This document shows positions 25,315 through 61,104 of a stretch of 64,000 nt of DNA, one piece after another (position 1 is the stretch's first letter; the number at the start of each line of letters is the position of its first letter). The notes under the pieces are model-generated. The model had not been told where the DNA came from, did no database searches, and worked only from the letters and a program-made list of their open reading frames with translations. Location of the stretch: positions 156,614 through 220,613 of the forward strand of contig CAKOMY010000001.1 of the NCBI GenBank assembly GCA_934096815.1, written 5' to 3'. This stretch comes from an uncultured Bacilli bacterium. GTDB lineage: Bacteria; Bacillota_I; Bacilli_A; RF39; UBA660. The position numbers and the translations under genes were made by a program.

Positions 25315-25359
25315 TTAGAGTGGTATAACTATAATTGTGAAAGGAAGAGTGATTAGATT

Positions 25360-25752: not shown

Positions 25753-25757
25753 TTATG

Positions 25758-25783
25758 AAAGTACTCGAAAGAGTGCTTTTTTT
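25758..25783 (+). terminator. Terminator of hsp20
   Basis: AAAGTACTC-GAAA-GAGTGCTTT followed by a T-run. Confidence 0.7.
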
Positions 25784-25861
25784 AGTGAATTATTTATTGA
25801 TAAGATATTGATTATAAATTATTTTTTTGTTAAAGTTAAGATAGTAATAGAGGAGTTTGTG

Positions 25862-43554: not shown

Positions 43555-44445
43555 TTGGGTATGAATGAATTAGATTTGATGGATGGTAGTAAAAATGATT
43601 ATCAGTTGGTTACAGAACTTAGTAAAGTTGTTAGAAGTTATAAAGATAAAAATAAACCTGTTGATAAAAAATTTGTTTATAAAGTTGCAAATGTGTGTTT
43701 AATTAATAATGAAGTGGATTTAAAAAATGGTTTGATAATTGTTGGTAACTCTAAAGAAATTGAAAATGATTATGAATCTTGTTATGGTGATGATATGATT
43801 ACATATTCGTCTTTATCTTTAAGAAATTTTTATAAACGGATAGACAATTTTGGAAGTGCATATAATTTTGGCAATCATAATATGCTTTCTTATTATTCTG
43901 TAATATGTACTTTAATTCATGAAATGTCTCACGCTAGACAGGATTATATTGTAAACAATCATCCTTATTCATTTGCTGGAATTATTTATTCCTATTGTAG
44001 TAATGTTTTTGAAAGTGAGCCACTTTTTTATGATATATACTATGATTGTTTTCCAGAAGAAAGAAATGCCTTTTTAAGAGGAAATTATATTGCTAATATG
44101 GTAATTAAGCATGTTTATGGCGATAAATTATCACTTTTTTTCAAGGAATTATTTTTTCAAGAATTACTTATTAATTATGACTATGATATGTATCCATTAA
44201 AGAGATTTGGTGATGCTTGTAAGCAGTTTGGATATGACTATTTTGATAGATTAATTCCTGATGTTGAATTAACTCAAGAAAATTTTTTTGAACGTGTTTG
44301 GTGTGGTTATAGGATAACGGAAGAAGAATATAATTATTTACTTGATTTAAGTATTGGTATTTCTTATCCTAAAAATGATGTGGTAAAAGAATATTTAAAA
44401 AAATCTTCAATAAAAAGATTAATTTTAGATTTTAAAAAGAAATAA
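43555..44445 (+). CDS. Hypothetical protein with HExxH motif (putative Zn-metallopeptidase-like)
   Basis: LIHEMSHARQ, with a downstream Glu (NVFESEP) that could be a third ligand. Confidence 0.4.
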   Translation: MGMNELDLMDGSKNDYQLVTELSKVVRSYKDKNKPVDKKFVYKVANVCLINNEVDLKNGLIIVGNSKEIENDYESCYGDDMITYSSLSLRNFYKRIDNFGSAYNFGNHNMLSYYSVICTLIHEMSHARQDYIVNNHPYSFAGIIYSYCSNVFESEPLFYDIYYDCFPEERNAFLRGNYIANMVIKHVYGDKLSLFFKELFFQELLINYDYDMYPLKRFGDACKQFGYDYFDRLIPDVELTQENFFERVWCGYRITEEEYNYLLDLSIGISYPKNDVVKEYLKKSSIKRLILDFKKK

Positions 44446-44592
44446 AATTATATATTATAATATTGAAGATGATTTATTAGAATAATTATTTCGTTTATTA
44501 GATTTATTATTTCTGATATTATTTTTTAAATAGGTTTATAATATAAATAGACAATAAATTAATATTTTGATATTATTTAGGTGTGATGTAGA

Positions 44593-45627
44593 ATGAATAT
44601 ATTAATTAATGGACATAATATTTATTTAATTTTATTGGTAACTTTTATATGTTGTGTTTTATTAGTGCCGCTTGCTAAAGTTGTTGCAAAACATATTGGA
44701 GCAATAGATATGCCTAATGAGAGAAAGGTGCATAAAAAACCAATGCCTAGATTAGGGGGACTTGCAATATATTTAACATTTTTAATTGGCTATATGTTAT
44801 TTGCACCTATTAATGAACAGATGATTTCAATTCTTATTGGAGGATTTATAATTATTATTCTTGGAATATGTGATGATATTAAACCAATTAGAGCAAGATA
44901 TAAATTTTTAGTTCAGATAGTAGCTGCTTCTATTGTTGTATTTTATGGTAATATATATTTACCTAATATAAGTGCACTTGGATTATCTCTAACTTTTGGA
45001 AAATGGGGTTATCCTTTAGCTATATTCTTTATTTTGGCTATTATTAATGCAATAAATTTAATTGATGGTATAGATGGGTTAGCAACAGGTACTAGTGCAA
45101 TATTTTTTGTTACTATAACTATAATTGCACTTCTGCTAGATAGGATTTATGGTTTAGATGTTATTTTATGTGTAATTATGCTTGGTGCTTGTTTAGGATT
45201 TTTAATGTATAATAAACCGCCTGCTTCAATATTTTTAGGAGATACGGGTAGTACGTTTTTAGGTTTTATTATTGCTATAATAGCACTTTTAGGTTATAAA
45301 ACGGCTACATTTACTAGTTTAATTATTCCAATATTTATATTACTTTTACCAATACTTGATACAGTGTTTGCAATGATTAGAAGATACTTAAAGGGAGAAA
45401 ATATAGGTGAGCCTGATAAAGAACATTTACATCATCAATTACTTAAACTTAATAATAGTACTACTAAGACAGTATTAATTATGTATGGAATTGATATTCT
45501 ATGTTCTGTGATAAGTGTTTTATATGCCTTAGGATATAATTTAACTGCTATAGTTTTATATTTATTATTAATGTCATTTATATTATTTTTGATTTATAAA
45601 ACTGATATATTATTTAAACATAAGTAG
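44593..45627 (+). CDS. tagO: UDP-GlcNAc:undecaprenyl-phosphate GlcNAc-1-phosphate transferase (TagO/WecA, MraY-like)
   Basis: PNERKVHKKPMPRLGG, DDxxP and NAINLIDGIDGLA motifs, with a polytopic membrane topology. Confidence 0.88.
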   Translation: MNILINGHNIYLILLVTFICCVLLVPLAKVVAKHIGAIDMPNERKVHKKPMPRLGGLAIYLTFLIGYMLFAPINEQMISILIGGFIIIILGICDDIKPIRARYKFLVQIVAASIVVFYGNIYLPNISALGLSLTFGKWGYPLAIFFILAIINAINLIDGIDGLATGTSAIFFVTITIIALLLDRIYGLDVILCVIMLGACLGFLMYNKPPASIFLGDTGSTFLGFIIAIIALLGYKTATFTSLIIPIFILLLPILDTVFAMIRRYLKGENIGEPDKEHLHHQLLKLNNSTTKTVLIMYGIDILCSVISVLYALGYNLTAIVLYLLLMSFILFLIYKTDILFKHK

Positions 45628-45684
45628 TTAGCTATTTATGTTTTTTTGATTATTTGATAAAATTTTTTTAGAAAGAGATTTTAT

Positions 45685-46413
45685 ATGAAGAATAGTAATT
45701 GTAAATTATTAGGTTATAATGTTTGCATATTAAATAAAAATGATATTGTAGATAAAATAAATAAGAGTAAGGATAGAAATATTATATTTAATTTAAATCC
45801 GATAATTATGGTAAATTTTAATAATAATATAGAATATAAAGCGTTTATAAATAATGAGAAATATAATATACCTGATGGATATGGAACAATTCTAGGTATG
45901 AGAATTAATGGCAATAAAGGATTTAATCAGTTAACTGGAGTAGATATGTTTAATGAACTTTTATGTAATGCATGTAAATATGATAAGAAAGTTTATTTAT
46001 ATGGTGCTAAAAACGAAGTTATTGAAAAGACTGTTAAAGTATTAAAAGAGAAGTATATTAACTTAAATATATGTGGTTATATGAGTGGATATAGTAAAGA
46101 AAAAGATGTATTAAATGATATAAAAAAATGTAAACCAGATTATTTATTTGTTGGTATAGGATCACCTAAACAAGAAGAATTTATCATTAGAAATGAAAAG
46201 TTGTTTAGAAATATAAGTGTTATTATGCCTGTTGGTGGTACGTTTGATGTTGTATCTGGTTTAAAGAAAAGAGCACCAATTATTTATCAAAAACTATACT
46301 TAGAATGGTTATATAGAATGATTAAAGAGCCTAAAAGAATTAAAGATAATGTTAAGATATTAAAATATTTATATTTGGTAATATTTAAAAATGGAGGTAA
46401 AGATGAAAAATAA
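45685..46413 (+). CDS. tagA: WecB/TagA/CpsF-family glycosyltransferase (N-acetylmannosaminyltransferase-like)
   Basis: Family profile (DGYGTILGMR, YLYGAK, VGIGSPKQEEFI, LEWLYRMIKEPKR). Confidence 0.85.
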   Translation: MKNSNCKLLGYNVCILNKNDIVDKINKSKDRNIIFNLNPIIMVNFNNNIEYKAFINNEKYNIPDGYGTILGMRINGNKGFNQLTGVDMFNELLCNACKYDKKVYLYGAKNEVIEKTVKVLKEKYINLNICGYMSGYSKEKDVLNDIKKCKPDYLFVGIGSPKQEEFIIRNEKLFRNISVIMPVGGTFDVVSGLKKRAPIIYQKLYLEWLYRMIKEPKRIKDNVKILKYLYLVIFKNGGKDEK

Positions 46414-47365
46414 AAGATTATATGTAGTTATACCTTGTTATAATGAAGAAGAAGTTTTAAGAGAAACAAGTAAGAGATTAAATGTTAAGTTAAACGAATT
46501 AATTAAAGATAAAACTATTTCTAAAGATAGTAAAGTATTATTTGTTAATGATGGATCTAAAGATAAAACTTGGAATATTATATGTGAATTAAATAAAGAA
46601 AATAAATTATTTAGTGGAATTAATTTATCAAGAAATAGAGGACACCAAAATGCGTTGGTAGCAGGACTTATGACTGCTAAAGAATATGCTGATGTGGTAA
46701 TATCTATGGATGCTGACTTACAAGACGATATTAATGCGATTGATGAAATGCTTAAAGATTATTATGATGGATCAGAAGTTGTTTATGGAGTTAGATCCTC
46801 AAGGGCAAAGGATACTTTCTTTAAAAAGTTTACAGCTGAAGCATTTTACAAGTTTATGAAATTTATGGGAGCTGATGTTGTATTTAATCATGCTGATTAT
46901 AGATTAACAAGTAAAAGAGTTTTAGATAATTTTGCAAATTATAAAGAAGTTAATTTATTTTTAAGAGGAATGTTTCCTTTAATTGGATTTAAATCTAGTA
47001 TAGTATATTATGAAAGGGCTGAAAGATTTGCAGGTGAGTCTAAATATCCATTAAAGAAAATGCTTAATTTTGCATGGGATGGGATAACATCTTTTAGTGT
47101 TAAACCAATAAGAATGATTCTTGATTTAGGTATATTTATTTGTATGATAAGTTTTGTAGTACTTATTTATTGTTTAATTAGAAAGATTAGCGGTGCTACT
47201 GTGGAAGGATGGACATTTATTGCTTGTTCATTATGGTTTTTAGGTGGTATTCAAATGTTTTCACTTGGTATAATTGGAGAATATGTTGGTAAGGTTTATA
47301 GTGAAACCAAAGCAAGACCTAGATATATTATTCAAGATAATTTATTAGAAAAGAAGGAAAAATAG
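46403..47365 (+). CDS. GT2-family polyprenol-phosphate glycosyltransferase (GtrB/ArnC-like) with C-terminal TM helices
   Basis: GGAGGT RBS. VVIPCYNEE, DGSKDKT and DADLQDD (the DxD motif). Two C-terminal TM helices. Confidence 0.85.
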   Translation: MKNKRLYVVIPCYNEEEVLRETSKRLNVKLNELIKDKTISKDSKVLFVNDGSKDKTWNIICELNKENKLFSGINLSRNRGHQNALVAGLMTAKEYADVVISMDADLQDDINAIDEMLKDYYDGSEVVYGVRSSRAKDTFFKKFTAEAFYKFMKFMGADVVFNHADYRLTSKRVLDNFANYKEVNLFLRGMFPLIGFKSSIVYYERAERFAGESKYPLKKMLNFAWDGITSFSVKPIRMILDLGIFICMISFVVLIYCLIRKISGATVEGWTFIACSLWFLGGIQMFSLGIIGEYVGKVYSETKARPRYIIQDNLLEKKEK

Positions 47366-47367
47366 AT

Positions 47368-47398
47368 AAAGCATATAATTGTTATGCTTTGTTTTGTT
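47368..47398 (+). terminator. Terminator after the GT2 gene
   Basis: AAAGCATA-loop-TATGCTTT followed by a T-rich tail. Confidence 0.65.
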
Positions 47399-47483
47399 TA
47401 TTTATTTAATAAATTGTATTGATATGTTCAAAAAAAGATGATATAGTTTAATTATGAACAAATTAATTATAGGAGTTGATTAT

Positions 47484-48461
47484 ATGAAAAAGTATATGTA
47501 TTTGTTGTTTTTGCTTATTTTATTTGTTGTAACAGGTTGTTCAAAAAAAGGAGATCAAATTGTTATTTATACATCTATGGAGGAAAATCGTAATAAAGCT
47601 TTAAAAGAGCAATTAGCTGAAAAATTTCCGGATAAAAAAATTGTGGTTCAATATTTATCAACTGGGAATTGTGCTGCAAAAATAAAAAATGAAGGTATAG
47701 AAGTGGAAGCAGATATTGTCCTAGATTTAGAAACTGCACATATGGCTGAACTTGAGGATAATTTTGCTGATTTATCATCTTTTGATACAAGTATTTATCT
47801 TGATGGAGTTAATAAGTCAAATAGATATTTAACTTGGACTAAATATACCATGACGTTAGTTATTGATAAAAATTATTTTGATGAACATAATTTATCGATA
47901 CCAAAAACTTATGAAGATTTGTTAAAACCTGAATATAAAAATTTAATTGCTATCCCTGATCCTAAAACATCTGGTACTGGTTACGCTTTTTACTTAAATG
48001 TTGTTAATATAATGGGTGAAGATAATGCTATTAAGTATTTTAAAAAATTAAAAAACAATTTAAGAGAATTTACAACTTCTGGTTCTGGACCTACAAACTT
48101 ATTAAAACAAGGTGAAATAGCTATTGCAATGGGAATGACAAGTCAAGGGGTAGAAGCTATTAATGAAGGGTATAATTTTAAAATTGTTTCTTTAAAAACT
48201 GGTGCTCCATATAATACTACTAGTTTTGGTATTATTAAGGGAAGAGAAAACAAAGAAAATGTACGTGAAGTTTTTGAGTGGTTAATGAATGATTTTGGAA
48301 AATATGATAAAGAATATTTTCTACCTGATAAGATTCTTAAAAATCAAGAAGTTAAAGTGAAAAATTATCCTACAAATTTAAAAGATGCAAAAATGGATGG
48401 TATAGATAGTGTTAGCGTCAAACAAGATTTAATTAGTAAGTGGGAAAAAGTTAATGGCTAG
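47484..48461 (+). CDS. ABC substrate-binding lipoprotein, FbpA/AfuA/ThiB/PhnS (COG1840-type) family
   Basis: Lipobox VTGC. Cluster E-like SBP profile. The start is at the ATG after TAGGAG. Confidence 0.75.
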   Translation: MKKYMYLLFLLILFVVTGCSKKGDQIVIYTSMEENRNKALKEQLAEKFPDKKIVVQYLSTGNCAAKIKNEGIEVEADIVLDLETAHMAELEDNFADLSSFDTSIYLDGVNKSNRYLTWTKYTMTLVIDKNYFDEHNLSIPKTYEDLLKPEYKNLIAIPDPKTSGTGYAFYLNVVNIMGEDNAIKYFKKLKNNLREFTTSGSGPTNLLKQGEIAIAMGMTSQGVEAINEGYNFKIVSLKTGAPYNTTSFGIIKGRENKENVREVFEWLMNDFGKYDKEYFLPDKILKNQEVKVKNYPTNLKDAKMDGIDSVSVKQDLISKWEKVNG

Positions 48462-49215
48462 TATTGAGGTTAAAAATATTTCAAAAATTTTTGATAATAA
48501 ATTGGTATTAAATGATTTGAATTTTAAAGTTAATGATGGCGAATTATTATCTATTTTAGGTAAATCAGGTTGTGGTAAAACGACTTTATTAAAGATATTA
48601 ATTGGTATTGAGAGACCATCGAGTGGAAGTATTTTAAAGAATAATAAAAATATTACAAATTATGATATTTCTAAGAGAGATATGGGAATAGTATTTCAAA
48701 ATTATGCATTGTTTCCAAATATGACTGTTCTTGAAAATGTTTCATATGCTTTAAAAAATAAATTAAAAAATAAGAATGAAGCAATAAAACAGGCTATGGA
48801 TATAATTTCAATGGTGAATTTAGAGGAACATGTAAATAAATATCCTAATGAACTATCAGGAGGTCAGATGCAAAGAGTGGCAATAGCTAGAACTTTAGCT
48901 CTTAAACCTGATGTTATTTTATTTGACGAAGCATTAAGTGCATTAGATGCTGAAAATAAAATAATTCTTAGAAATAAAATTAGAGAACTTAATAAAAAAT
49001 TTAACATTACAATGATATTTATTAGTCATGATCAAGAAGAAGCATTTTCAATATCTGATCGTGTTATGATTATGAATGATGGTTCTATTGAACAAATAGA
49101 TGAACCAAGTGAGATTTTTAAACATCCTGCGTCAAAATATGTTGAAGATTTTGTAGTTAATCATTTAAAAGAAAAGGTAACTTCAATTCAAAAGTGTATT
49201 AAGGCTGATTTATGA
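48454..49215 (+). CDS. ABC transporter ATP-binding protein (FbpC/ThiQ/PotA-like)
   Basis: Walker A GKSGCGKTT, LSGGQMQR signature and ILFDEALSALD Walker B. Overlaps the SBP gene. Confidence 0.9.
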   Translation: MASIEVKNISKIFDNKLVLNDLNFKVNDGELLSILGKSGCGKTTLLKILIGIERPSSGSILKNNKNITNYDISKRDMGIVFQNYALFPNMTVLENVSYALKNKLKNKNEAIKQAMDIISMVNLEEHVNKYPNELSGGQMQRVAIARTLALKPDVILFDEALSALDAENKIILRNKIRELNKKFNITMIFISHDQEEAFSISDRVMIMNDGSIEQIDEPSEIFKHPASKYVEDFVVNHLKEKVTSIQKCIKADL

Positions 49216-50795
49216 TGAAAAAATTTAAAATTAATAAAACAGAAATATTAGTATCATTATTTTTAATTGTTTCTGTTTTGATTCCAATTTCAAAACTATT
49301 TATTTATGTTAAATGGGAAACATTAGGCAAATTAGTAACTTCCAATGCATTTAAAAATGCTTTAAATAATTCGCTTATTGTAACGTCTATTTCGACAATT
49401 CTATCAATTATAATTGCTTATGTTATTGCCTATACTTTAAATAGAGTTGATATTAAGTTTAAAAAGTTTTTTAAGTTAGTATTTGTATTTCCAATGCTCA
49501 TTCCATCTGTTTCACATGGATTAGGGTTAATTAATTTATTTGGTACTAATGGAATTATATCTAGATATTTTGATTTTAATATTATTGGACCTGTTGGAAT
49601 TATAATTGGATCAATAATGTATTCTTTTCCAGTTGCGTTTTTAATGCTAGATGATGGATTTAAATATATTGATAATAATATGTATTATGTTTCAAAGTCG
49701 CTTAATTTAAATAGTTTTCAAATTTTTAAAAATGTTACTTTGGTTTATTTGAAAAAATCTATTCTGTCTTCTATTTTTGCTGTGTTTACTATGATTTTTA
49801 CTGATTATGGTGTACCAATAGCGGTAGGTGGCAAATTTAATACTTTACCCGTATTTTTATATAAAGAAGTTATAGGTTTACTTGATTTTTCAAAGGGAAC
49901 TATGATTGCAATGTTTTTACTTATTCCTGCAATAATTTCTTTTTTAGTTGATACTTTTGTTAAGGATTATAATAATGAAAATACTGGTAATAAAAATTAT
50001 TATAGTTCTAATAAAGTTTTATCTATATTTTTAAAATCATTTGTTGTTTTGATTACTATTTTAATTTTTGTGGTACTTGGTTCATTTATTTATTATGCAT
50101 TTGTTGATAATGTTGTACTTAATAATTCGTTTTCATTAAAACATTTTGAATATGTTATTGAAAATAGTGTTGGTGATTATTTATTAAATTCATTAATCAT
50201 ATCTTTATTTGTTGCAGTTATTGGAACTTGTATTTCTTATTTTGCTGCTTATAATACGGCAAGAGTTAGAGGAAAAATGTCTAAATTAATTCATTTATTT
50301 ACGATAATTACTTTAGCTATCCCTGGTATAGTTTTGGGACTTGCTTATACGATTTGTTTTAAAGGTACTTTTATCGCTAATACATTTGTCATAATAATAA
50401 TTTGTAATATTGTACATTTTATTGCATCACCTTATTTGATGGCTTACAACGCACTTTTAAAAGTTAATAGTAATTATGAAGTTGTTGCTTCTACACTGAA
50501 TGTTGGTATTTTAAAAATTATTAAGGATGTAATTATTCCTTGTACTAAAAGTACAATTATCGAAATGTTTTCTTATTTTTTTGTTAATAGTATGATTACA
50601 ATATCAGCTGTAACATTTTTATACACTTCTTCAACAATGCCTGTTTCATTATTAATAAATAATTATGAGGGAAATATGATGTTGGGAGAGGCTGCAATTG
50701 TTTCAATAATAATTTTATTAATTAATTTATTTGTTAAAATTGTTACTAATATTTTTGTGTCAAAAGATAGAAAGAAGGTTTATATTAATGATTAA
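49212..50795 (+). CDS. Fused two-domain ABC permease (FbpB/ThiP-like, ~12 TM)
   Basis: 527 aa with two BPD_transp_1-like halves. Overlaps the ATPase gene by ATGA. Confidence 0.85.
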   Translation: MMKKFKINKTEILVSLFLIVSVLIPISKLFIYVKWETLGKLVTSNAFKNALNNSLIVTSISTILSIIIAYVIAYTLNRVDIKFKKFFKLVFVFPMLIPSVSHGLGLINLFGTNGIISRYFDFNIIGPVGIIIGSIMYSFPVAFLMLDDGFKYIDNNMYYVSKSLNLNSFQIFKNVTLVYLKKSILSSIFAVFTMIFTDYGVPIAVGGKFNTLPVFLYKEVIGLLDFSKGTMIAMFLLIPAIISFLVDTFVKDYNNENTGNKNYYSSNKVLSIFLKSFVVLITILIFVVLGSFIYYAFVDNVVLNNSFSLKHFEYVIENSVGDYLLNSLIISLFVAVIGTCISYFAAYNTARVRGKMSKLIHLFTIITLAIPGIVLGLAYTICFKGTFIANTFVIIIICNIVHFIASPYLMAYNALLKVNSNYEVVASTLNVGILKIIKDVIIPCTKSTIIEMFSYFFVNSMITISAVTFLYTSSTMPVSLLINNYEGNMMLGEAAIVSIIILLINLFVKIVTNIFVSKDRKKVYIND

Positions 50796-51678
50796 TGAAA
50801 ATGAATTTGAGGTATTAGTTTGTTTAGAAAGAGAAAAAAGATGTTGTTCACAACGTGAAGTTGCTAAATTAGCTAATTTATCTTTGGGAACAGTTAATAA
50901 AGCAATGATTTCATTAACTAAAAAGAATTTTATAAGTGAAAATGGTAATATTACTTCCGAAGGTATTAATGCTTTAGAACCATATAGAGTTAAAAGAGCG
51001 GTTTTTTTAGCAGCTGGATTTGGTTCTAGAATGGTTCCTATTACTTTGAATACACCTAAACCTTTAGTTAGAGTAAATGGTAAAAGAATTATTGAAACTT
51101 TAATAGATGCAGTCAAGAAAGCTGAAATTCCTGAAATTGTTATTGTAACAGGATATTTGCATGAACAATTTGAAGAATTATTAAGGAAATATGACAACAT
51201 TAAATTAATATACAATAAGTTTTATAATGAAATGAATAATATATCTTCTGCATATGTTGTTAAAGATTTATTAAAAAATGCTTATGTATTAGAATCTGAT
51301 TTATTACTTTATAATTCAAATATAATAAGAAAGTACGAATTTCATTCAAATTTCTTAGGAAAAAAGGTGGATGTTACAGATGATTGGTGTTTTGATGTAA
51401 AAAATGGAATTATTATAAAAGAAAGACAAGGTGGCTATGATTGTTATCAAATGTATGGTATTTCATACTATGATGAAAAAGATGGCGAAAAAATATTTTC
51501 TGATATAACTAAAGTTTTTAATATGCCAGGTGGTAAAGAAAAATATTGGGAACAAGTCATTTTGGACGTTTGTAAAAATAATTATAAAATTTATTTAAGA
51601 GAATGCTATGATGGTGATATAATAGAAATAGATTCATTTAAAGAGTTAAAAGAAATTGATAAATCTTATGATATTTAG
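50788..51678 (+). CDS. LicC-like nucleotidyltransferase (NTP_transferase) fused to an N-terminal winged-helix domain
   Basis: AVFLAAGFGSRMVPITLNTPKPLVRVNGKRIIE aligns closely to LicC CTP:phosphocholine cytidylyltransferase. It is preceded by ~75 aa with a MarR/ArsR-like wHTH (VLVCLEREKRCCSQREVAKLANLSLGTVNKAM). The start overlaps the permease stop. Confidence 0.75.
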   Translation: MINENEFEVLVCLEREKRCCSQREVAKLANLSLGTVNKAMISLTKKNFISENGNITSEGINALEPYRVKRAVFLAAGFGSRMVPITLNTPKPLVRVNGKRIIETLIDAVKKAEIPEIVIVTGYLHEQFEELLRKYDNIKLIYNKFYNEMNNISSAYVVKDLLKNAYVLESDLLLYNSNIIRKYEFHSNFLGKKVDVTDDWCFDVKNGIIIKERQGGYDCYQMYGISYYDEKDGEKIFSDITKVFNMPGGKEKYWEQVILDVCKNNYKIYLRECYDGDIIEIDSFKELKEIDKSYDI

Positions 51679-51707
51679 ATAATAATTTTTTATCAGTGGA
51701 GGTTTTT

Positions 51708-54608
51708 ATGGTAAAAGAAAATAAAATATCTTTACTTTTTGTGTTATTACCATTTCTTGATTTATTTACAGCATTATTTACAAGAAACACTATTTTTGTT
51801 ATTTCTCCTGGAATAATTTTTAAGAGTTTATTACTTTTATATTTTGTAGTATATATATTAAACTCTAAATCAAAGTTTAAAAAAGTTTTGATTTGCTATT
51901 TAATATTTATATTGCTTTATTTATTTATGTATTTCATCATTAAGAATGATCTTCTTGATTTAAATTATTTATTAACTGAACTTACTTTTTTATTTAAATT
52001 AATTTATTTTCCTATTTGTTTTATGGGATTATTGTGTTTTTTTGATGATAACAATATTAAAGAGAATACTATTACTGGTATTTTTAAATACAGTTTAATT
52101 ATTTATGTATTATTACTAATTATTCCTACAATATTTGGTATTTCTTATACTACTTATCCAATGCATTTAAAAGGATATATTGGATTATATTATGCAGGAA
52201 ATGAGATTGCTAATATAATGGTTATATTATTTCCATTTGCTTATTTATTTATTAATAAAAGTAAATATAGTTTTTTAATTATTTTTCCAATTATTCTTGT
52301 TATGATGATGATTGGAACTAAAGTCGCGACCTTTGGTTGTTTAATAATTACAATATTATCATTAATATTTAGTATAATAAAAAATAAATTTAGAATTAAT
52401 AAAGTTGTAATTAAGTGTTTTTCTATATTTGTATTTGCTTTATTTATATCTACAAATTCATATGCTGTTTATAATTATAATTATATAAAGAATAATGTTT
52501 ATAATGATGAAAGTAAAGAAATTATTATTGATGATAATAATAAAGCAAAAGTTGAGGAAATTCAAGGATATTTAAATATTTTTTATGATAAAAATAAATT
52601 AACTAAAATAATTAGACCATTAGTAAGTGGTAGGGATATACTTCTTGCTAATACGATAAGTATATATAATGATTTAGATAATGATTCTAATATATGGTTA
52701 GGAATAGGTTTTTCTAATACTAATAGCGTTAATAATACAAATGTTGCTAGGTTAATAGAAATTGATATTTGTGATTTATATTTTCATTTTGGAATTATTG
52801 GGTTATTAATTTCTTTATTTCCATTTATAATTGTTGGTTATTTATTTATTGTTAATTTTAGTAAAATTAAACTTAATAGTATATATTTATTATTTATATT
52901 ATTTCTTGTGATTGGTGTTTCAACATTTAGTGGACATATTTTATTTGCGCCAGCTGTATCAATTTATTTGGTGTTATTATTGTTATTATTTTTATATGAA
53001 TTTGATTGTTATGGGAGAAAAATTAATAAAAATAAAAAGATATCAATTTTAGCACTTCATTTAGGATATGGTGGTGTTGAAAAATCTATTATTGATCAAG
53101 CTAATATGTTAAGTGAATTTTATGATGTTGAAGTTGTGTCTTTATATAAGCTTTATGATTATATTCCTTATAAGGTTAATGATAAAGTTAAAATGAAATA
53201 TTTATCAAATTTAAAACCAAATAGGAATGAATTTAAAGATGCTGTTAAGAGAGAAAATATTAAAGATATAATTAATGAAGGCTTTAAAGCAATTAAAATA
53301 TTATATTTAAAAAGCAAGTTGATAGGTGATTATATTTATAATTGCGATTCTAATGTTGTTATTTCTTCTAGAATTGATTTTACAAAATTGTTAAATAGAT
53401 ATGGTAATAATTTAGCTGTAAAAGTAGCTGAGGAGCATGTCTATCATAATAATAGTAAAAAATATTTTAAATTGTTAAAGAAATCTATGAAAAATATAAA
53501 TTATTTAATTCCTGCAAGTAAATATTTATATGATGATTATGAAAAATTATTTAAAAATGAAAATGTGATTGTTAAATATATACCTCAAATTGTTGGTGAT
53601 ATTCCTTTAAATAAAAGTAAATGTAATAATTATAATATTGTTTCAGTTGGAAGATTATCTAAAGAAAAGGGATATGATGATTTGATTAAAGTGTTTGATT
53701 TAGTTCATAAAAAAAATAAAAAAATTAAACTTACAATTGTTGGTGATGGAGATGAAAAAGAAAATTTAGAAAATTTGGTCAGTCAATATAAGTTAAATAA
53801 GTATATAAAATTTACTGGTTTTTTAACTCAAGATAAGTTAAAAGATGTATATATTAATTCTTCATTATATGTTATGACTTCTTTAGAAGAATCTTTTGGT
53901 TTAGTTTTATTAGAAGCAATGAGTTATGGAATACCTTGTGTTGCTTTTGATTCTGCTTTAGGAGCTAAAGAAATAATTGATGATAAATCAGGTATATTGA
54001 TTAAAAATCGTAATTTAGCTGAAATGGCTGATACTATATGTAATTATTTTGATGGAAAATATAAATTCAATATTTCTGATAAGATTCAAAATTATTCATA
54101 TGATAAAGTTAAAATTGTGTGGAGAAATTTTGTTGATGATTGTTTAAATAAAAATGATAAAAAAAGATGTTTATTTGTTTCTAGTCAAGGTGGTCATTTA
54201 AATGAATTGTTGAAATTAGAAGATACTATTAATAATTATAATTCTTTAGTGATTACTGAAAGATGCAATAATAATTTAAAATATAAAACTAAATATTTGA
54301 TGGCTACAACTAGATATCAATTTAGTTATGTTTACGGTATATTTTATAATTGTTTTAAGAGCCTAAATATATTTTTGAGTTTTTCCCCTGATGTTATAAT
54401 TTCAACCGGATCTCATACCGCAATACCTTTGTGTTTAATTGGTCACTTATTTGGAAAAAAGATAGTATATATAGAATCTTTTGCAAATATTTCTACTAAA
54501 TCGTTAGCAGGAAGGATAGTTTATAATTTTGCTGATGTTTTTATAGTTCAATGGGAGAATATGCTTAAATTATATCCTAATGCGATATATATAGGAGGTT
54601 TGTATTGA
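51708..54608 (+). CDS. Tri-domain fusion: Wzy/WaaL-like polytopic membrane domain + GT4 glycosyltransferase + Alg14-like domain
   Basis: About 440 aa of TM helices with a Wzy_C-like loop (IWLGIGFSNT...LYFHFGIIGLL). A GT-B/GT4 core (VGRLSKEKGYDDL...EESFGLVLLEAMSYGIPCVAFD). The C-terminal 140 aa match Alg14/Cps14F-like (LFVSSQGGHLNE...GSHTAIP...IESFANIS). Confidence 0.7.
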   Translation: MVKENKISLLFVLLPFLDLFTALFTRNTIFVISPGIIFKSLLLLYFVVYILNSKSKFKKVLICYLIFILLYLFMYFIIKNDLLDLNYLLTELTFLFKLIYFPICFMGLLCFFDDNNIKENTITGIFKYSLIIYVLLLIIPTIFGISYTTYPMHLKGYIGLYYAGNEIANIMVILFPFAYLFINKSKYSFLIIFPIILVMMMIGTKVATFGCLIITILSLIFSIIKNKFRINKVVIKCFSIFVFALFISTNSYAVYNYNYIKNNVYNDESKEIIIDDNNKAKVEEIQGYLNIFYDKNKLTKIIRPLVSGRDILLANTISIYNDLDNDSNIWLGIGFSNTNSVNNTNVARLIEIDICDLYFHFGIIGLLISLFPFIIVGYLFIVNFSKIKLNSIYLLFILFLVIGVSTFSGHILFAPAVSIYLVLLLLLFLYEFDCYGRKINKNKKISILALHLGYGGVEKSIIDQANMLSEFYDVEVVSLYKLYDYIPYKVNDKVKMKYLSNLKPNRNEFKDAVKRENIKDIINEGFKAIKILYLKSKLIGDYIYNCDSNVVISSRIDFTKLLNRYGNNLAVKVAEEHVYHNNSKKYFKLLKKSMKNINYLIPASKYLYDDYEKLFKNENVIVKYIPQIVGDIPLNKSKCNNYNIVSVGRLSKEKGYDDLIKVFDLVHKKNKKIKLTIVGDGDEKENLENLVSQYKLNKYIKFTGFLTQDKLKDVYINSSLYVMTSLEESFGLVLLEAMSYGIPCVAFDSALGAKEIIDDKSGILIKNRNLAEMADTICNYFDGKYKFNISDKIQNYSYDKVKIVWRNFVDDCLNKNDKKRCLFVSSQGGHLNELLKLEDTINNYNSLVITERCNNNLKYKTKYLMATTRYQFSYVYGIFYNCFKSLNIFLSFSPDVIISTGSHTAIPLCLIGHLFGKKIVYIESFANISTKSLAGRIVYNFADVFIVQWENMLKLYPNAIYIGGLY

Positions 54609-55081
54609 AAATTTTTGTTACTTTAGGTAGTAGTAATCAAAATTTTAATAGATTACTAAAAAAAATAGATGAGCTTGCAAAAAATAATATTATTGATGAT
54701 GTAATTGTTCAGTCTAATTCAAGTGATTATGTTCCTAAAAACTATATAATTAAAAATCATTTAAATTTTGATGAGTATAAAAAGTATGTTGAAAACTGTG
54801 AAATTTTGATAACTCATGGTGGTGTTGGATGTATTTTTGATGGATTAATGAATAATAAAAAGATTATTGCATTTCCTAGGATGAGTGAATATCATGAAGC
54901 TGTTAATGATCATCAAAAACAAATTGTAGATAAATTTTATAGTGATGGATATATATTAACTGGTAATATTGATGATTTAGATAAATTAATCACAAATATT
55001 GATAGTTTTACTCCAAAAAAATATAAATCTAATACTAATTTATTTAATAAAAAACTTATTGACATTATCGAAAAATTATAG
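54605..55081 (+). CDS. Alg13-like glycosyltransferase catalytic subunit (Glyco_tran_28_C; Cps14G/EpsF-like)
   Basis: TTG start overlapping the upstream TGA, with an AGGAGG RBS. MKIFVTLGSS ... ITHGGVGCIF motifs. Confidence 0.75.
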   Translation: MKIFVTLGSSNQNFNRLLKKIDELAKNNIIDDVIVQSNSSDYVPKNYIIKNHLNFDEYKKYVENCEILITHGGVGCIFDGLMNNKKIIAFPRMSEYHEAVNDHQKQIVDKFYSDGYILTGNIDDLDKLITNIDSFTPKKYKSNTNLFNKKLIDIIEKL

Positions 55082-55102
55082 AGAGCCTATTTGCTCTTTT
55101 TA
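55082..55102 (+). terminator. Terminator after the Alg13-like gene
   Basis: AGAGC-loop-GCTCT followed by T5. Confidence 0.6.
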
Positions 55103-55261
55103 ATTTAAATAATTTTGATACGAATAATTGCTAATCTTGCTAGGCTTTTATTTTAAGGTATAAAAACATTGTAAAAGCAGAAACTTTTGTATTATACGTT
55201 AAAAAACTTGAAATACTATTAATTTAGTTTTTTTTTTGTTATGATTATATCGTGGTGGAAA

Positions 55262-56257
55262 ATGAAAATAGATATGTATGATTTTGATGATACCATTTAT
55301 AATGGGGATTCAACTGTTGATTTTATAAAATATTGTTATAAACATAAGTATATTAAATTTAGGGATATAATAAAGATTATAGGAGCTTTTATTAAATATT
55401 TTTTTGGGGTTATTAATATAACTCAGTTTAAAGAGGTATTATTTAGTTTTTTAAATAATGTTAATGATGGGTATTGCTTAGTAAATGATTTTTGGGATGA
55501 ACATTATAAAAATATTAAGAAATTTTATTTAGATAAAAATCATGATAATGATGTTATTAATTCTGCTAGTCCTTATTTCTTACTTAAGCCTGTTTGTGAT
55601 AAGTTAAGCGTTAAAGATTTAATTGCATCTGATGTAGATTTAAAAACTGGAAGGTTTAGAGAAAAAAATAATAGTAGAGAGGTAAAAGTAGATAATTATA
55701 AAAAAAAATATATAAATTATATTTTAGATGAATGTTATAGTGATAATCCTTTTAATGATAAATTTATATTAGAACTTGCTAATAAGCCTTATGTGGTTAA
55801 GGGAGAAAAATTAATTAATTATTATGATTATAAACCATCTTTTGTAAAATCTATTTTTAGAAAGTTATGGGGATTTTATAGAAGTCATTTAGAAGTTATA
55901 AATTATTTATTTATAGGTGGTTGTACAACTGTTATATCAATTTTAAGTTATGCTTTATTTGCTAAAGTTTGTTATCTTGATTTAGTTGTATCTAATGTGT
56001 TATCATGGATTATGGCTGTTTTATTTGCTTATTTTACTAATAGAGTTATAGTTTTTAATAGTAAAAATAAGAATTATATAAAAGAGTTTATTTCATTTAC
56101 GGGAAGTAGGGTTATAACTTTAATTCTTGATACTTTGTTAATGATTTTGTTTGTTAGGTCATTAAATATGAATGATATGATAGCTAAGTTAATTGTTCAA
56201 ATTGTTGTTATTATTGGAAATTATTTAATTAGTAAATTACTAGTGTTTAAGAAGTAG
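55262..56257 (+). CDS. HAD-superfamily hydrolase domain fused to a GtrA-like 4-TM domain
   Basis: HAD motif I DFDDT at the N-terminus. The C-terminal 120 aa match the GtrA family (LFIGGCTTVISILSYALFAKV ... ISKLLVFKK). Confidence 0.65.
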   Translation: MKIDMYDFDDTIYNGDSTVDFIKYCYKHKYIKFRDIIKIIGAFIKYFFGVINITQFKEVLFSFLNNVNDGYCLVNDFWDEHYKNIKKFYLDKNHDNDVINSASPYFLLKPVCDKLSVKDLIASDVDLKTGRFREKNNSREVKVDNYKKKYINYILDECYSDNPFNDKFILELANKPYVVKGEKLINYYDYKPSFVKSIFRKLWGFYRSHLEVINYLFIGGCTTVISILSYALFAKVCYLDLVVSNVLSWIMAVLFAYFTNRVIVFNSKNKNYIKEFISFTGSRVITLILDTLLMILFVRSLNMNDMIAKLIVQIVVIIGNYLISKLLVFKK

Positions 56258-56269
56258 GTGTGAATATAT

Positions 56270-56902
56270 ATGAAAAAGTTTATAGGTTTTTATAGGGATT
56301 GCGATTTATTAACCATGACTGGTACTTTTATGGCTCTTTTAGGGTGTATTTTATCAATTAATGGTAGTCGTGTTATACCTATATTTTGTTTAATTATATC
56401 GGGGATATGTGATGCTTTTGATGGTAAGCTTGCAAGAAGAAAACTTTGTTCTAATATGCAAAGGGTTTATGGTGTTCAATTAGATTCTTTATCTGATTTA
56501 ATTTCATTTGGTGTTTTTCCTTTAGTTTATACAATTAATATATTACCTAAGAATTATTATTTTGGATGGATTGCTTTAATATTTTATAGTCTATGTGGTA
56601 TGATTAGACTTGCTTACTTTAATACTCTTGATATATGTAAGAAAGCTGATAAAAAATGTTTTGTTGGTATGCCAATTACTTCTATTGCTATTTTTTATCC
56701 AATTGTTTTTATGTTTTTATGGGTAGTTAAATTTAAATTTTATCCGGAAATTGTTTCTGTTTTTATGATTTTAATGGGATTATCATTTATTAGTACTATT
56801 AAAATAAAGAAATTAGATGATAAGAAAAAGATTGTTCTTTCGATTGGCGGTATATTATTTATTATTTGTTTTTTAGTTTTTTATTTCTTTTGTAGAAAAT
56901 AA
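56270..56902 (+). CDS. CDP-alcohol phosphatidyltransferase, PssA-like
   Basis: DAFDGKLARRKLCSNMQRVYGVQLDSLSDLISFG fits D-G-x2-A-R-x8-G-x3-D-x3-D. The best resemblance is to B. subtilis phosphatidylserine synthase. No psd gene is adjacent. Confidence 0.7.
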   Translation: MKKFIGFYRDCDLLTMTGTFMALLGCILSINGSRVIPIFCLIISGICDAFDGKLARRKLCSNMQRVYGVQLDSLSDLISFGVFPLVYTINILPKNYYFGWIALIFYSLCGMIRLAYFNTLDICKKADKKCFVGMPITSIAIFYPIVFMFLWVVKFKFYPEIVSVFMILMGLSFISTIKIKKLDDKKKIVLSIGGILFIICFLVFYFFCRK

Positions 56903-57039
56903 TAAATTTGTATGTTATTTAATACAAATTTTTTTATTTTGTTAGACAAATTAATTAATTTTGGTAGTATATTTTATTTTTTTGTTATTTGCAAGTTAAA
57001 CTTAAGTATAATAAAATGCTTTTTGTAAGGAGAGATGTT

Positions 57040-58902
57040 ATGCTTGAACTTAGAAATATATGTAAAAAATATGATAGAGATGTTTTAAAAAAAATAAATT
57101 TAAAATTTGGTAATAGAGGTCTTATTTGTTTAGTTGGAGAATCTGGTAGTGGTAAGTCAACGCTTTTAAATATTATAGGTGGATTAGAACGGGCTGATAG
57201 TGGTAAAGTTTTAATTGATGGAGTTAACATTAATAAATTTGATAGTTCATATTATCATAACCAAGTTGTTAGTTATATTAATCAAAATTATAATTTAATT
57301 GATAATTATAGTACTTTAGATAATGCTTTATTACCAATTGATATTAGAAGAAATAGAAGTCCTAGTTTTGATAATAAAATATTTAAAATGTTAGGTATAA
57401 GTAGTTTAAAAAATAGTAAGGTATCTTCTTTAAGTGGAGGAGAAAAGCAAAGAGTTGCTATTGCTAGGTGTATAATGCAAAATACAAAAATTATTTTAGC
57501 AGATGAACCTACTGGAGCACTTGATTTAGATAATTCTTATAAGATTATGGAGATTCTTAAAAATTTATCGAAGAAAAAATTGGTTATTGTAGTTACACAT
57601 AATATGGAACTAGCTAATAAGTTTGCTGATGAGGTAATAAAACTAGTTGATGGTAAAATAGAAGAAAATGAAAAAAAACAGATTAGATCATATTTTAATT
57701 TAAGACGAAAATATGAGGTTAAATTAACAATAAGTAAATTATGTAAATATGCAGTTAAGAATATAAAAAATAAATTGTTAAGAAATATTTTAGTTGTTCT
57801 AGCATTTACTATTGGTTTATGTAGTTTAGGTTTAGTGTTATCAATTAGAAATGGTTTTAAGAAGGAATTAGATAATTTAAATGGTTCATCATTTTTTAAT
57901 TATCCAATTATTATTAGTAAAAGTAATTATGTTGATGATTTTAATAGTAAGTTAGAAAATATTAAAGGAATAAATGTGAAAAAAGGAACATTTATAAATA
58001 ATGTTATAGATGATAAGCTAATTAATATTATAAATGAGATAGATAAAAAGTATGTTAAAGCTGTTAGTTATTATAGAAATATTGATTATAATTTTAAAAG
58101 TGTGTCGTATGTAAATCCTTCAAACAATTATTTTTATATATTAGATGGTAAATGGCCGGAAAATGATAATGAGGTACTAATTCTTTATGATGAAGATAAT
58201 TCAATAAGTGAAAAAGTTTATAATTATTTGGATGTGGAAAAAAAGGGACTTATTAACAATATATTTTATGTTAATGGGAAGGAACTTAAAGTTTGTGGTG
58301 TTGTTAGATCTAATAATGATTATTTTAAGGATTTAAGTGGGATAATTTATTCTAATAATTTATTTGATAATGAGATAACGGATATCTTTATTTATTCAAG
58401 TGATTTGGAATCTAAAAATATAATTAAAGATAAATTAAAGGATTATAATATTTTAGATAATGCGGAAGATATAGTTAATAATTCGAAAAAAATAGTTGAT
58501 GGAATTAGTATTGTTTTAATATTATTTAGTGTTATTAGTTTGATTGTTTCAGTTATTATGATATTTGTTATTTCTTATATTTCAGTTATTGAGAGATATA
58601 AAGATATTGGTATTTATAAAAGTATTGGTTTTAGAAATAAAGATGTTAAAAACTTATTTTGCTTAGAAAATATATTGATAGGTGTTTGTTCATTTGTTTA
58701 TTCAAATGTGATGTTGATATTAATAGGTAATAAGATAAATTATTATGTTAGTAGTTATGTTAATATTAATAAAATTATGGTTATTAGTTTTTCTAATGTT
58801 TTAATTATTGGTTTTTTAAGTATATTTCTATGTTTTATTGCTAGTTTGATTCCTGCATGTATTGCATCTAAAAAGAAAATTATTGATGTTATGAATAATT
58901 AA
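57040..58902 (+). CDS. ABC transporter, fused ATP-binding and FtsX/MacB-type permease
   Basis: AAGGAGAG RBS. Walker A GESGSGKST, LSGGEKQR and ILADEPTGALD motifs. C-terminal 4-TM FtsX-like domain. Confidence 0.85.
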   Translation: MLELRNICKKYDRDVLKKINLKFGNRGLICLVGESGSGKSTLLNIIGGLERADSGKVLIDGVNINKFDSSYYHNQVVSYINQNYNLIDNYSTLDNALLPIDIRRNRSPSFDNKIFKMLGISSLKNSKVSSLSGGEKQRVAIARCIMQNTKIILADEPTGALDLDNSYKIMEILKNLSKKKLVIVVTHNMELANKFADEVIKLVDGKIEENEKKQIRSYFNLRRKYEVKLTISKLCKYAVKNIKNKLLRNILVVLAFTIGLCSLGLVLSIRNGFKKELDNLNGSSFFNYPIIISKSNYVDDFNSKLENIKGINVKKGTFINNVIDDKLINIINEIDKKYVKAVSYYRNIDYNFKSVSYVNPSNNYFYILDGKWPENDNEVLILYDEDNSISEKVYNYLDVEKKGLINNIFYVNGKELKVCGVVRSNNDYFKDLSGIIYSNNLFDNEITDIFIYSSDLESKNIIKDKLKDYNILDNAEDIVNNSKKIVDGISIVLILFSVISLIVSVIMIFVISYISVIERYKDIGIYKSIGFRNKDVKNLFCLENILIGVCSFVYSNVMLILIGNKINYYVSSYVNINKIMVISFSNVLIIGFLSIFLCFIASLIPACIASKKKIIDVMNN

Positions 58903-58960
58903 TTATTTCTTATTTTTATTTTAGATAGTATAATTAGTTTATATAAGAGGATGATAATAT

Positions 58961-59521
58961 ATGATTATACCAGTTGGAATTAGTAATAGACATGTACATT
59001 TAACTGAAGCTGTATGGAAAGAAATATTTGGAGATGAGGAAATTACTGTAAGAAACTATTTAAATCAACCAGGACAATTTGCTAGTAATATGACTGTTGA
59101 TATAATGGTTAATGATAATAGAATTGATCATGTTAGAGTTGTTGGACCTTTAAGAAACTATAATCAAGTTGAAATTGATGATAGTGATGCAAAAATATTA
59201 GGAGTAGTTCCGCCTAGAAAACAAAGTGGTGATTTGGATGATAGTTTATCAGTAACTGTTATTGGACCAAGGGGAAGTATTTCATTAGATAAGGGTCTTA
59301 TTAGATCTGATGCTCATATTCATATGGACCCTGAGACAGCAATTAAAATGAATTTACTAAATAAAGAAGTAGTTGGTGTATTTAAAAATGGTGTTAAACT
59401 TTTAGATGCTAAAATTAAGATTTTGGATAATTCTTATATAGAAATGCATATTGATAAAGATGAAGAAGTATTATATGACTTACATCAAGGTGATATTGTT
59501 GAATTTAAAAAGACTTTATAA
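58961..59521 (+). CDS. PduL-type phosphotransacylase-like protein
   Basis: The two PduL repeats (ISNRHVHLT... and ...SDAHIHMDPE). Confidence 0.65.
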   Translation: MIIPVGISNRHVHLTEAVWKEIFGDEEITVRNYLNQPGQFASNMTVDIMVNDNRIDHVRVVGPLRNYNQVEIDDSDAKILGVVPPRKQSGDLDDSLSVTVIGPRGSISLDKGLIRSDAHIHMDPETAIKMNLLNKEVVGVFKNGVKLLDAKIKILDNSYIEMHIDKDEEVLYDLHQGDIVEFKKTL

Positions 59522-59543
59522 TATTATAGTGTAGTGATGTTTT

Positions 59544-60524
59544 ATGAAGTGGAAAATTGGTAATGTTGAAATTAAAAATCAAATTGTTCTTGCTCCAATG
59601 GCAGGAATAAGTAATACTGCATATCGTCAAATTATTAAAGAGATGGGAGCTGGACTTATTTTTGCGGAAATGGTTAGTGATAAAGCATTAGTTTATGGAA
59701 GTGAAAAGACATTTGATTTGCTAAAAATGAATGATATGGAAAGGCCCATTGCTCAACAAATATTTGGTAGTGATGTTGATTCTTTTGTTAAGGCTGCTAA
59801 GTTAGTTGAAGATGCTATGCATCCTGATATTATAGATATTAATATGGGATGTCCGGTACCAAAGGTAGCTATTAAATCACAAGCAGGAAGTGCTCTTTTA
59901 AAAAATCCAGATAAAATAAAAGAAATAGTTAGCGCTGTTGTTAATGCTGTAAGTGTTCCGGTTACTGTTAAAATACGAAGTGGTTGGGATGAAAAAAGTA
60001 TTAATGCAGTAGAAGTTGCTAAAGTTATTGAAGAAGCTGGGGCAAGTGCTATTACAGTTCATGGAAGAACTAGAGCACAAGGTTATAGTGGAAATGCTGA
60101 TTGGAATATAATAAAACAAGTTAAAGAAACAGTAAAAATTCCTGTTATAGGTAATGGTGATGTTACAAGTGCTGAAAAAGCAAAAGAAATGCTTGATTAT
60201 ACTGGATGTGATGCAGTCATGATAGGTAGAGGAGTACTTGGAAATCCTTGGCTTATTAATGAATGTGTAACCTATTTAGAGTCAGGAATTATTCCCTCAA
60301 GACCAAGTTCAAAAGAAAAAATAGAAATGCTAAAAAGACATTATAAATTATTAGTAGAGTCGACTTCAGAAAGACAAGCAATACTTGAAATTAGAACGCA
60401 TGCATTATGGTATATAAAAGGTATGCCAAAAAGTGCGTATATAAAAAATGAAATATGTAAAACTAAAAATAGTGAAGATTTATTTAAAATCTTAGATGAT
60501 TATTTAGGAGAATTAGATGATTAA
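59544..60524 (+). CDS. dusB: tRNA-dihydrouridine synthase
   Basis: LAPMAGISN, catalytic Cys (NMGCP) and FMN-binding TIM-barrel motifs. Confidence 0.9.
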   Translation: MKWKIGNVEIKNQIVLAPMAGISNTAYRQIIKEMGAGLIFAEMVSDKALVYGSEKTFDLLKMNDMERPIAQQIFGSDVDSFVKAAKLVEDAMHPDIIDINMGCPVPKVAIKSQAGSALLKNPDKIKEIVSAVVNAVSVPVTVKIRSGWDEKSINAVEVAKVIEEAGASAITVHGRTRAQGYSGNADWNIIKQVKETVKIPVIGNGDVTSAEKAKEMLDYTGCDAVMIGRGVLGNPWLINECVTYLESGIIPSRPSSKEKIEMLKRHYKLLVESTSERQAILEIRTHALWYIKGMPKSAYIKNEICKTKNSEDLFKILDDYLGELDD

Positions 60525-61104
60525 AAATATTTTTAGTAAACAAAATTTAAAATATGCATTGTTGGAACTATTGGTGGGACTATTTTTACTTTTTAAATGA
60601 TATATTACATATTAATTATTTATTAACAAATGTGGTTACTTTTATAGTAACTGTTACTATTTTGTATTTCTTAAATAAAAAATTTGTTTATGAAGCTGAT
60701 TATAATGATAATGTAGGATTTGTAATGTTTTTTGCAAGTAGAATAGTATTGTTTTAACTTTTGGTTTAAAGATATTTATGTCTCCGAGTATGATTTCTAA
60801 ATTTATTTCTTCATCTTCAACTACTTATATAAATTATTGTGTTGGTAAATTTATTTTTAATAATAAAAATTAATATGCTTTATTGTAATATCTTTCTTTA
60901 CTGTTTTCTACGTTTTGTTTAGAAAGAATATTTTATTTTTTTCATCTTACTTCGTTTCGACCTTTTTCTATTTTAATTTATTTACTATCGTTTTGATTAT
61001 TTTATATATTTGTTTTCTACATTTTGTGCCTATTAATAGAGCAATTATAGATTGATTAATATTTTAGTTTAGTCTATAATTATATTAAGGATATGGAGGA
61101 TAAA

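Follow-up and report, generated by a model that had tools for sequence, protein, structure and literature searches.

What does a membrane domain of the O-antigen ligase type do when it is joined, in one polypeptide, to two cytoplasmic sugar transferases? The question is raised by a gene of an uncultured Bacilli bacterium (RF39, UBA660) that lies within a 64,000-nucleotide stretch of contig CAKOMY010000001.1 (assembly GCA_934096815.1, forward-strand positions 156,614 to 220,613; hereafter the window, in whose own numbering all coordinates are given). The gene (51708..54608, + strand) encodes a protein of 966 amino acids (aa) in which a WaaL-fold membrane domain is followed by a GT4 glycosyltransferase (GT) and by a PssD/Cps14F-type half-glycosyltransferase, and its neighbour (54605..55081, +) encodes a PssE/Cps14G-type second half. 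We found the fusion to be genuine and, judging from sequence and structural models, put at roughly 55% the probability that it is a three-module enzyme of an undecaprenyl phosphate (Und-P)-based envelope glycan pathway, the membrane domain of which would be a ligase with early-step transferases attached to it.

The fusion is encoded by an uninterrupted open reading frame (ORF) that starts with an ATG at 51708, 5 nt past a GGAGG ribosome-binding site, and stops with a TGA at 54606-54608; its length is 966 aa and not the 967 of an earlier sequence-only reading of this DNA, in which the stop codon had been counted. The four domain calls of that reading (ligase/polymerase, GT4, Alg14 and Glyco_tran_28_C) were all recovered by Pfam and NCBIfam. 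The N-terminal domain (aa 1-433, 51708..53006, +) matches O-antigen_lig (PF13425) at aa 7-426 (E 6e-45, profile positions 8-453 of 462), with 154-157 bits against a cut-off of 31; PF13425 was the sole family that it matched in the Pfam search, where Wzy_C (PF04932) gave no match, and NCBIfam contained no named family for it. The cytoplasmic GT4 domain (GT-B fold, aa ~442-815, 53031..54152, +) was recognised by NCBIfam as well as by Pfam (Glycos_transf_1, aa 641-782, E 3e-38, 131.7 bits vs a cut-off of 26.4), and the glutamates of its EX7E motif (E728 and E736) are invariant among homologues. The remainder (aa 816-966, 54153..54605, +) comprises an NKND linker and the Alg14-like, N-terminal half of a split GT-B enzyme with an SSxGGH loop, for which Pfam reported Alg14 (aa 875-964, E 1e-17) and NCBIfam a full-length match to PssD/Cps14F (NF041549, profile 1-151 = aa 822-965, 162 bits vs a cut-off of 110).

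The partner ORF (158 aa) begins with a TTG (54605-54607), 6 nt past a GGAGG, that overlaps the TGA of the fusion gene, in agreement with the translational coupling proposed earlier, and extends to 55081. Its product is the Alg13-like, catalytic half (Glyco_tran_28_C, E 8.5e-13), and passes the NCBIfam threshold for PssE/Cps14G marginally (121.7 bits vs 120). Both halves of a split transferase are present in adjacent, overlapping genes, each above the cut-off of its family, so that the Alg14/Alg13-like pair suggested by the sequence-only reading holds. As the PssD domain and PssE cover both halves of WelK, a single-chain enzyme (PssD = positions 4-151, PssE = 169-309, by NCBIfam), together they would form one GT-B. 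By all sequence and fold measures testable here, the fusion protein belongs to PF13425, GT4 and PssD.

A chain of this kind could also stem from two or three genes that were joined by a sequencing error or by misassembly, and in near-identical strains the gene does end at 814 aa, just where the window protein enters its PssD domain. This explanation was tested and rejected, and we give it next to no chance. The DNA past that point in those strains is different (an epimerase cassette) rather than a frameshifted PssD, and an identical 966-aa protein (P0121) occurs on 17 independent contigs, the longest of 341 kb. Homologues with the same three domains (~1,375 sequences in ~26 clusters at 90% identity) are 53-89% identical to the window protein, and the in-frame junction of 6-9 residues before the SSxGGH loop is kept in all those examined (n=11), down to 53% identity. 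In four related loci (L004, L005, L086 and L087) PssE (157/158 aa) directly follows the tri-domain gene; public records list relatives with this protein family as ‘Bacilli’ or ‘Mollicutes’. Hence, the single ORF is not a set of split genes, and the tri-domain fusion is real.

The strain comparison further delimits a mobile part of the gene. By blastn, the window is 98.9% identical to a Hadza gut contig (L001) over 43706-54150 and 99.1% identical over 55210-61000; between these flanks lies a strain-variable cassette (54151..55209, +) that consists of the end of GT4, the PssD domain, PssE and a terminator-like hairpin. At this site L001 has 2.2 kb with a stop, a UDP-GlcNAc 2-epimerase gene and non-coding remnants, and its ligase-GT4 product (LIG-GT4) is an 814-aa protein with a natural stop, ending in ...FIDDILE. 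Both alleles, tri-domain and 814-aa, occur within the same 90% cluster. Since strains that are ~99% identical have the epimerase segment instead, the PssD/PssE part behaves as a swappable cassette within the species, and the near-identity (95-100%) of window positions 52600-55300 to the otherwise more distant L004 indicates that this segment was moved by recombination. The hairpin (55080-55099) sits directly after PssE, inside the cassette, as if the latter carried its own terminator; it is the only one in the 16.5-kb locus, in a scan that was weak overall (2 sites vs 1.7 expected), and promoter-like sites were about as many as expected in this AT-rich DNA (157 vs 156; GC content 23%) and so carried no information.

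We next consider the membrane domain, for which the predicted topology has 12 transmembrane (TM) helices, both ends of the domain on the inner side and, between TM9 and TM10, an outside loop of 103 aa (aa 250-352); the predicted short loops hold 14 K+R inside vs 2 outside. The model of the N-terminal 442 residues (pLDDT 90.1, pTM 0.90) has a WaaL-like fold, in line with the ~10-12 TM helices and the WaaL/Wzy-superfamily fold that had been proposed for it, and the alternative that this region lacks a Wzy/WaaL fold did not materialise. With WaaL of Cupriavidus metallidurans (PDB 7tpj) the domain shares the 12 TM helices and the large outside loop TM9-TM10. This likeness was found by fold search only, at 12% sequence identity, and PDB sequence searches (with the single sequence and with an 8-sequence profile) returned no WaaL match; the further matches of the fold search were a designed helical protein and FtsW (both 8.2), followed by RodA (7.8). 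WaaL differs, moreover, in being a stand-alone protein with lipid A-core as its acceptor. The predicted topology agrees with the cytoplasmic placement of both transferase modules.

Might this domain be inert, and merely anchor the two transferases at the membrane? GT4-PssD and GT4-WecG fusions exist without a ligase domain, so the transferases work without one. However, 21 of the 23 residues found to be conserved lie together at the outer membrane face, in outside loops or outer helix halves (among them R26, K39, E91, Y150, G203-T204-K205, R309, E351, D353 and H410), and many carry a charge. The domain itself persists through dozens of clusters (50% identity) at identities as low as ~30%, and both findings make an inert anchor very improbable. 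Given where these residues lie, the membrane domain looks like an active enzyme with its site at the outer face, as far as conservation and the model can tell.

In the AlphaFold2 model of the full-length protein (pLDDT 85.4, pTM 0.77) the last GT4 helix (798-815) runs straight into the first PssD strand (820-824). The nearest PDB sequences to the GT4 domain are BshA, GtfA/Gtf1, SdgB and TarM, and Foldseek ranked 6eji_A first (TM-score 0.82 on the target), ahead of BshA, SdgB and TarM; 6eji_A we take to be Campylobacter jejuni PglH, which acts on an Und-PP-linked oligosaccharide. Two other leads on this domain were dropped: a match to PF20706 (‘GT4-conflict’), as a sign of a defence system, merely overlaps the far stronger Glycos_transf_1 match, and a role as glycolipid-anchor maker stemmed from weak Mgs and IagA/BgsA matches that are inseparable from generic GT4 similarity.

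The surroundings of the gene provide a pathway context. The glycan locus of the window (44593-58902, all on the + strand) opens with a TagO/WecA-like initiating transferase (44593-45627), TagA/WecG (45685-46413) and a GtrB/ArnC/PgfS-like GT2 with two C-terminal TM helices (46391-47365), and past PssE it encodes an HAD+GtrA membrane protein (55241-56257); TagO, TagA, the GtrB-like GT2 and the GtrA domain jointly indicate an Und-P pathway. Known split transferases of the Cps14F/G and PssD/E type add the second sugar to polyprenyl-PP-sugar, as does the unrelated GT26 family (TagA/WecG). Within such a pathway, TagO would prime Und-P with GlcNAc-1-P to yield Und-PP-GlcNAc, the PssD/PssE pair would add the second sugar (a task that would fall to TagA/WecG in relatives where TagA is fused or adjacent at that place), and GT4 would add the next one. 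After translocation, the WaaL-like domain would transfer the Und-PP-linked glycan, at the outer face, onto an acceptor.

Whether the outer-face step is a ligation or a polymerisation was weighed on the genes with which the family travels, in the window and in seven Pfam-annotated related loci (L001, L004 and L086-L090), all of them parts of genomes and not complete ones. ABC-2 exporters are encoded in three of the seven (L004, L089 and L090), and multi-domain GTs of 779-1057 aa lie nearby; L089 and L090 have ABC2_membrane plus ABC_tran genes and GT4/GT2 double enzymes of ~780 aa. No Wzx/MOP flippase and no chain-length regulator (Wzz) was found in the 64-kb window or in the seven annotated loci. 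We favour ligation over Wzy-type polymerisation because the family is accompanied by ABC-2 exporters and polymerising multi-domain GTs, in the absence of Wzx/Wzz. For a Wzy-type polymerase, the fused GT4 and PssD/PssE would build a short Und-PP-linked repeat that is then polymerised outside the cell, much as in the channelled assembly line that the sequence-only reading had envisaged. PF13425 does belong to the clan of Wzy, in which ligases and polymerases are inseparable by sequence (PMC6030368); the window locus, with only four cytoplasmic GT activities and neither an ABC-2 exporter nor a large polymerising GT, fits a short repeat; and one relative (L010) has two tandem PF13425 genes that could be a polymerase and a ligase. 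On the other hand, the missing flippase and chain-length regulator, the missing Wzy_C match and the orthologous LIG-GT4(-X) genes that adjoin ABC-2 exporters and multi-domain GTs (such pathways need a ligase and not a Wzy) speak against polymerisation. Thus, the assembly line found no specific support, and we regard a Wzy role as unlikely, albeit the most serious competitor of the ligase.

A third possible function is that of an O-oligosaccharyltransferase (O-OTase; PglL/PilO/WsaB-like), which would move the Und-PP-linked glycan built by the fused GTs onto a surface protein. Protein O-OTases share the superfamily, and the best NCBIfam match of the neighbouring GT2 is PgfS, of Streptococcus mutans protein glycosylation (238.7 bits, below the cut-off of 500). 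Yet known O-OTases carry Wzy_C, which the window protein does not match, no S-layer or pilin gene that might supply the substrate was noticed beside the locus, and the hypervariable sugar genes and ABC-2 exporters of relatives resemble polymer loci; we therefore hold protein glycosylation to be improbable.

Several observations nonetheless weigh against the ligase that we prefer. The functions of the family members are read from sequence and models, and PF13425 includes proteins that were proposed as polymerases. For the conserved outer-face residues R309, K205 and H410, neither a sequence-level match nor a residue-level alignment to WaaL was obtained by which to equate them with its catalytic Arg/His. 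Since the window has no ABC-2 exporter and no large polymerising GT, the glycan of this strain may be short, and polymerisation outside the cell is possible; the translocator candidates nearby are limited to the GtrA domain and an ABC-FtsX protein. The coexistence of TagA with PssD/PssE places two different second-step enzymes in one window. Finally, there are several acceptor candidates: a glycolipid, a lipid-linked linkage unit or a protein.

The closest published precedent for a ligase with an attached transferase is WadA of Brucella, a bifunctional glycosyltransferase/O-antigen ligase (Servais et al. 2023, PMC9938171), in which a cytoplasmic GT adds the last core sugar and a 12-TM domain then ligates the O-antigen onto that sugar; it was called the first bifunctional O-antigen ligase, with few homologues (PMC9938171). 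Like WadA, the window protein has a cytoplasmic GT and a 12-TM O-antigen-ligase domain in one chain, with catalytic sites on opposite sides of the membrane, and the WadA pathway uses an ABC exporter (Wzm/Wzt). The GT of WadA prepares the substrate of the ligase, and we propose the same logic here: by analogy, what the ligase domain uses as its acceptor or linkage unit may be made ready by the transferases attached to it on the cytoplasmic side. WadA also differs in several respects. The order is reversed (the GT is N-terminal in WadA, whereas the window protein has its ligase at aa 1-433 and its GTs at aa 442-966), the ligase domain of the window protein is a PF13425 domain, and besides GT4 there is another GT module, one that is split and has its partner subunit encoded separately. 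Furthermore, WadA acts on lipid A-core, while no lipid A-core or lipopolysaccharide (LPS) genes were seen in the window, which has TagO/TagA instead and stems from a host listed under Bacilli or ‘Tenericutes’ in public records. Compared by its published description (PMC9938171), WadA is an analogue of the window protein, which is not a member of its class.

Gram-positive parallels exist as well. For WpaA/WpaB of Bacillus anthracis (PF13425), the proposed role is polymerisation of a secondary cell-wall polymer and/or its ligation onto a linkage unit made by TagO/TagA (PMC6030368), and pneumococcal TacL ligates teichoic acid to a glycolipid anchor (PMC5727136). By description, these are likewise membrane proteins of the WaaL/Wzy clan that act on Und-PP-linked wall polymers, and WpaA/WpaB, whose activities are proposed ones, share the Pfam family of the window membrane domain; unlike it, WpaA/WpaB and TacL are single-domain proteins. 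Attached GTs that build an acceptor or linkage unit would also fit the model put forward for WpaA/WpaB (PMC6030368). As to the C-terminal part, the domain and the next gene resemble Cps14F/Cps14G, PssD/PssE, EpsE/EpsF and eukaryotic Alg14/Alg13 and pass the PssD/PssE cut-offs, but in those split GTs the Alg14-like half is small and free-standing, whereas the window protein has it as the C-terminal domain of a ligase-GT4 chain of 966 aa.

How the third module was acquired is suggested by a 51%-identical relative (L090, a ‘Bacilli bacterium’) with separate genes for LIG-GT4 (814 aa), PssD (159 aa) and PssE (158 aa), in which the ATG of PssD overlaps the TGA of LIG-GT4 (ATGA). Its free PssD is 46% identical to the fusion domain, and residue 2 aligns with K819. 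Adjacent runs of GT4, PssD and PssE were found in at least 28 of the loci from 80 GTDB representative genomes (phmmer, among the matches listed), and the full tri-domain locus in none of the GTDB matches listed. On this sequence evidence, the fusion arose via stop loss between overlapping neighbour genes (LIG-GT4, PssD and PssE). An exhaustive search of 1.84 billion representatives recovered dozens of LIG-GT4 clusters (50% identity) and no second 50%-identity cluster with full three-domain coverage. Given this narrow distribution next to so many LIG-GT4 clusters, the three-part protein is a young, narrow variant in an old and broad family.

The same GT4 subfamily also occurs in LIG-GT4-WecG, GT4-WecG, GT4-PssD and GT2-GT4-PssD architectures, and in some relatives TagA/WecG is fused at the very position that PssD holds in the window protein; TagA/WecG and the PssD/E pair, unrelated to each other, are the two alternatives found behind GT4. 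We additionally noted LIG-GT4-TagA/WecG proteins of ~1079 aa (L010, 10004-14626; L089, 10001-13240), with a second, stand-alone PF13425 gene directly upstream in L010 that is reminiscent of the WpaA/WpaB pair, as well as a 1211-aa protein (P0109) with GT4, WecG and a Sulfatase (LtaS-like) domain. The PssE half, too, can be part of a fusion: in many related uncultured Bacilli (L007-L051) it is joined to a GtrA-like membrane domain of four helices, in proteins of 270-324 aa (e.g., L015, 7205-8107, and L029, 11558-12532), another undescribed way of membrane tethering.

The LIG-GT4 core is a large family that is already present in databases under the automatic name ‘O-antigen ligase family protein’, and no description of it or of the three-part architecture was found in the literature searched. 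The novelty claimed by the sequence-only reading thus stands for the exact three-part protein, and not for the principle of a GT-ligase fusion, which was published with WadA and so far shown for it only; what is new here is the ligase-GT4-PssD protein. Fusions of a WaaL-type ligase to cytoplasmic GTs are hence not limited to WadA but widespread in abundant uncultured gut Bacilli, where they come in interchangeable forms (with GT4, with GT4 and TagA, or with GT4 and PssD). Such a set amounts to Rosetta-stone evidence on which enzymes cooperate in an unstudied envelope-glycan pathway, and ties the early Und-PP-GlcNAc steps to the WaaL-like proteins of Gram-positive-type bacteria. The host species is very common in the gut (hundreds of 99-100% identical LigA sequences, the contigs reaching 1.2 Mb). 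The exchange of the cassette among strains with 99% identical flanks points to a variable surface-antigen locus in a prevalent human gut species, with bearing on phage and immune recognition.

The organisation of the wider locus is in part constant and in part not. The HAD+GtrA gene is followed in the window by a CDP-alcohol phosphatidyltransferase (PssA-like, 56270-56902, +) and by a fused ABC-FtsX protein (56989-58902, +), an order also present in L001, L004, L086 and L087, and the block PssE, HAD-GtrA, CDP-OH transferase, ABC-FtsX, PTAC and Dus is conserved downstream in the tri-domain relatives. The upstream block of these relatives is hypervariable: L087 has rmlABCD and DUF2142, L086 heptose-type genes and a 1057-aa GT2-GT2-pyruvyltransferase, and L004 an ABC-2 exporter and GT2s. 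The presence of VanY in the window, and of MurT in one of the relatives, suggests that the cell wall contains peptidoglycan. As a tentative extension, we can imagine an LPS-like logic in a wall-bearing gut bacterium with a small genome: the fusion protein, PssE and the HAD-GtrA/CDP-alcohol-transferase neighbours would be an invariant ‘core-plus-ligase’ machine, the two cytoplasmic modules of which would build a lipid-linked acceptor (a linkage unit or lipoglycan anchor), and the WaaL-like domain would attach to it hypervariable polymers from swappable upstream genes (by way of an ABC-2 exporter in some relatives). The exchange of PssD/PssE for the epimerase between 99%-identical strains would then change the junction sugar and amount to serotype switching.

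Further observations concern the neighbouring genes. In L087 HAD-GtrA-CDP-OH is one 546-aa protein (13453-15093; counterpart region in L086, 13451-15470), and such a union of phosphatase, polyprenyl-binding and CDP-alcohol transferase parts suggests a step, linked to the glycan, that involves a phospho-alcohol or a lipid anchor. Between the GT2 and the tri-domain gene, the window encodes an ABC importer and then a winged helix-turn-helix (wHTH) plus nucleotidyltransferase gene (47454..51678, +; the latter at 50788-51678, +). The three parts of the importer match best PhnS2, PhnT2 and PhnU2, of a putative 2-aminoethylphosphonate system, all below the family cut-offs. The importer and the nucleotidyltransferase hint at the uptake and CDP/NDP-activation of a phospho- or phosphono-alcohol with which the glycan or a lipid would be decorated; no transferase of the LicD type was noted alongside them. 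Directly upstream of TagO, a 296-aa ORF without a family match (43555-44445), conserved in L001, contains an HExxH-like motif (‘IHEMSH’) and may be metallopeptidase-like.

Farther away in the window, three consecutive ORFs (22315-27166; 268, 612 and 481 aa) without a Pfam match are rich in N, D and K, with a hydrophobic segment at the N terminus of the 481-aa one. The opposite strand carries three helicase/nuclease genes (10739-17696, -), one for a 448-aa UvrD-type helicase and the others for a 1031-aa UvrD-like helicase and a 764-aa PD-(D/E)XK nuclease that form an AddA/AddB-like pair, and a further PcrA/UvrD-type helicase is encoded at 31837-33915 (+).

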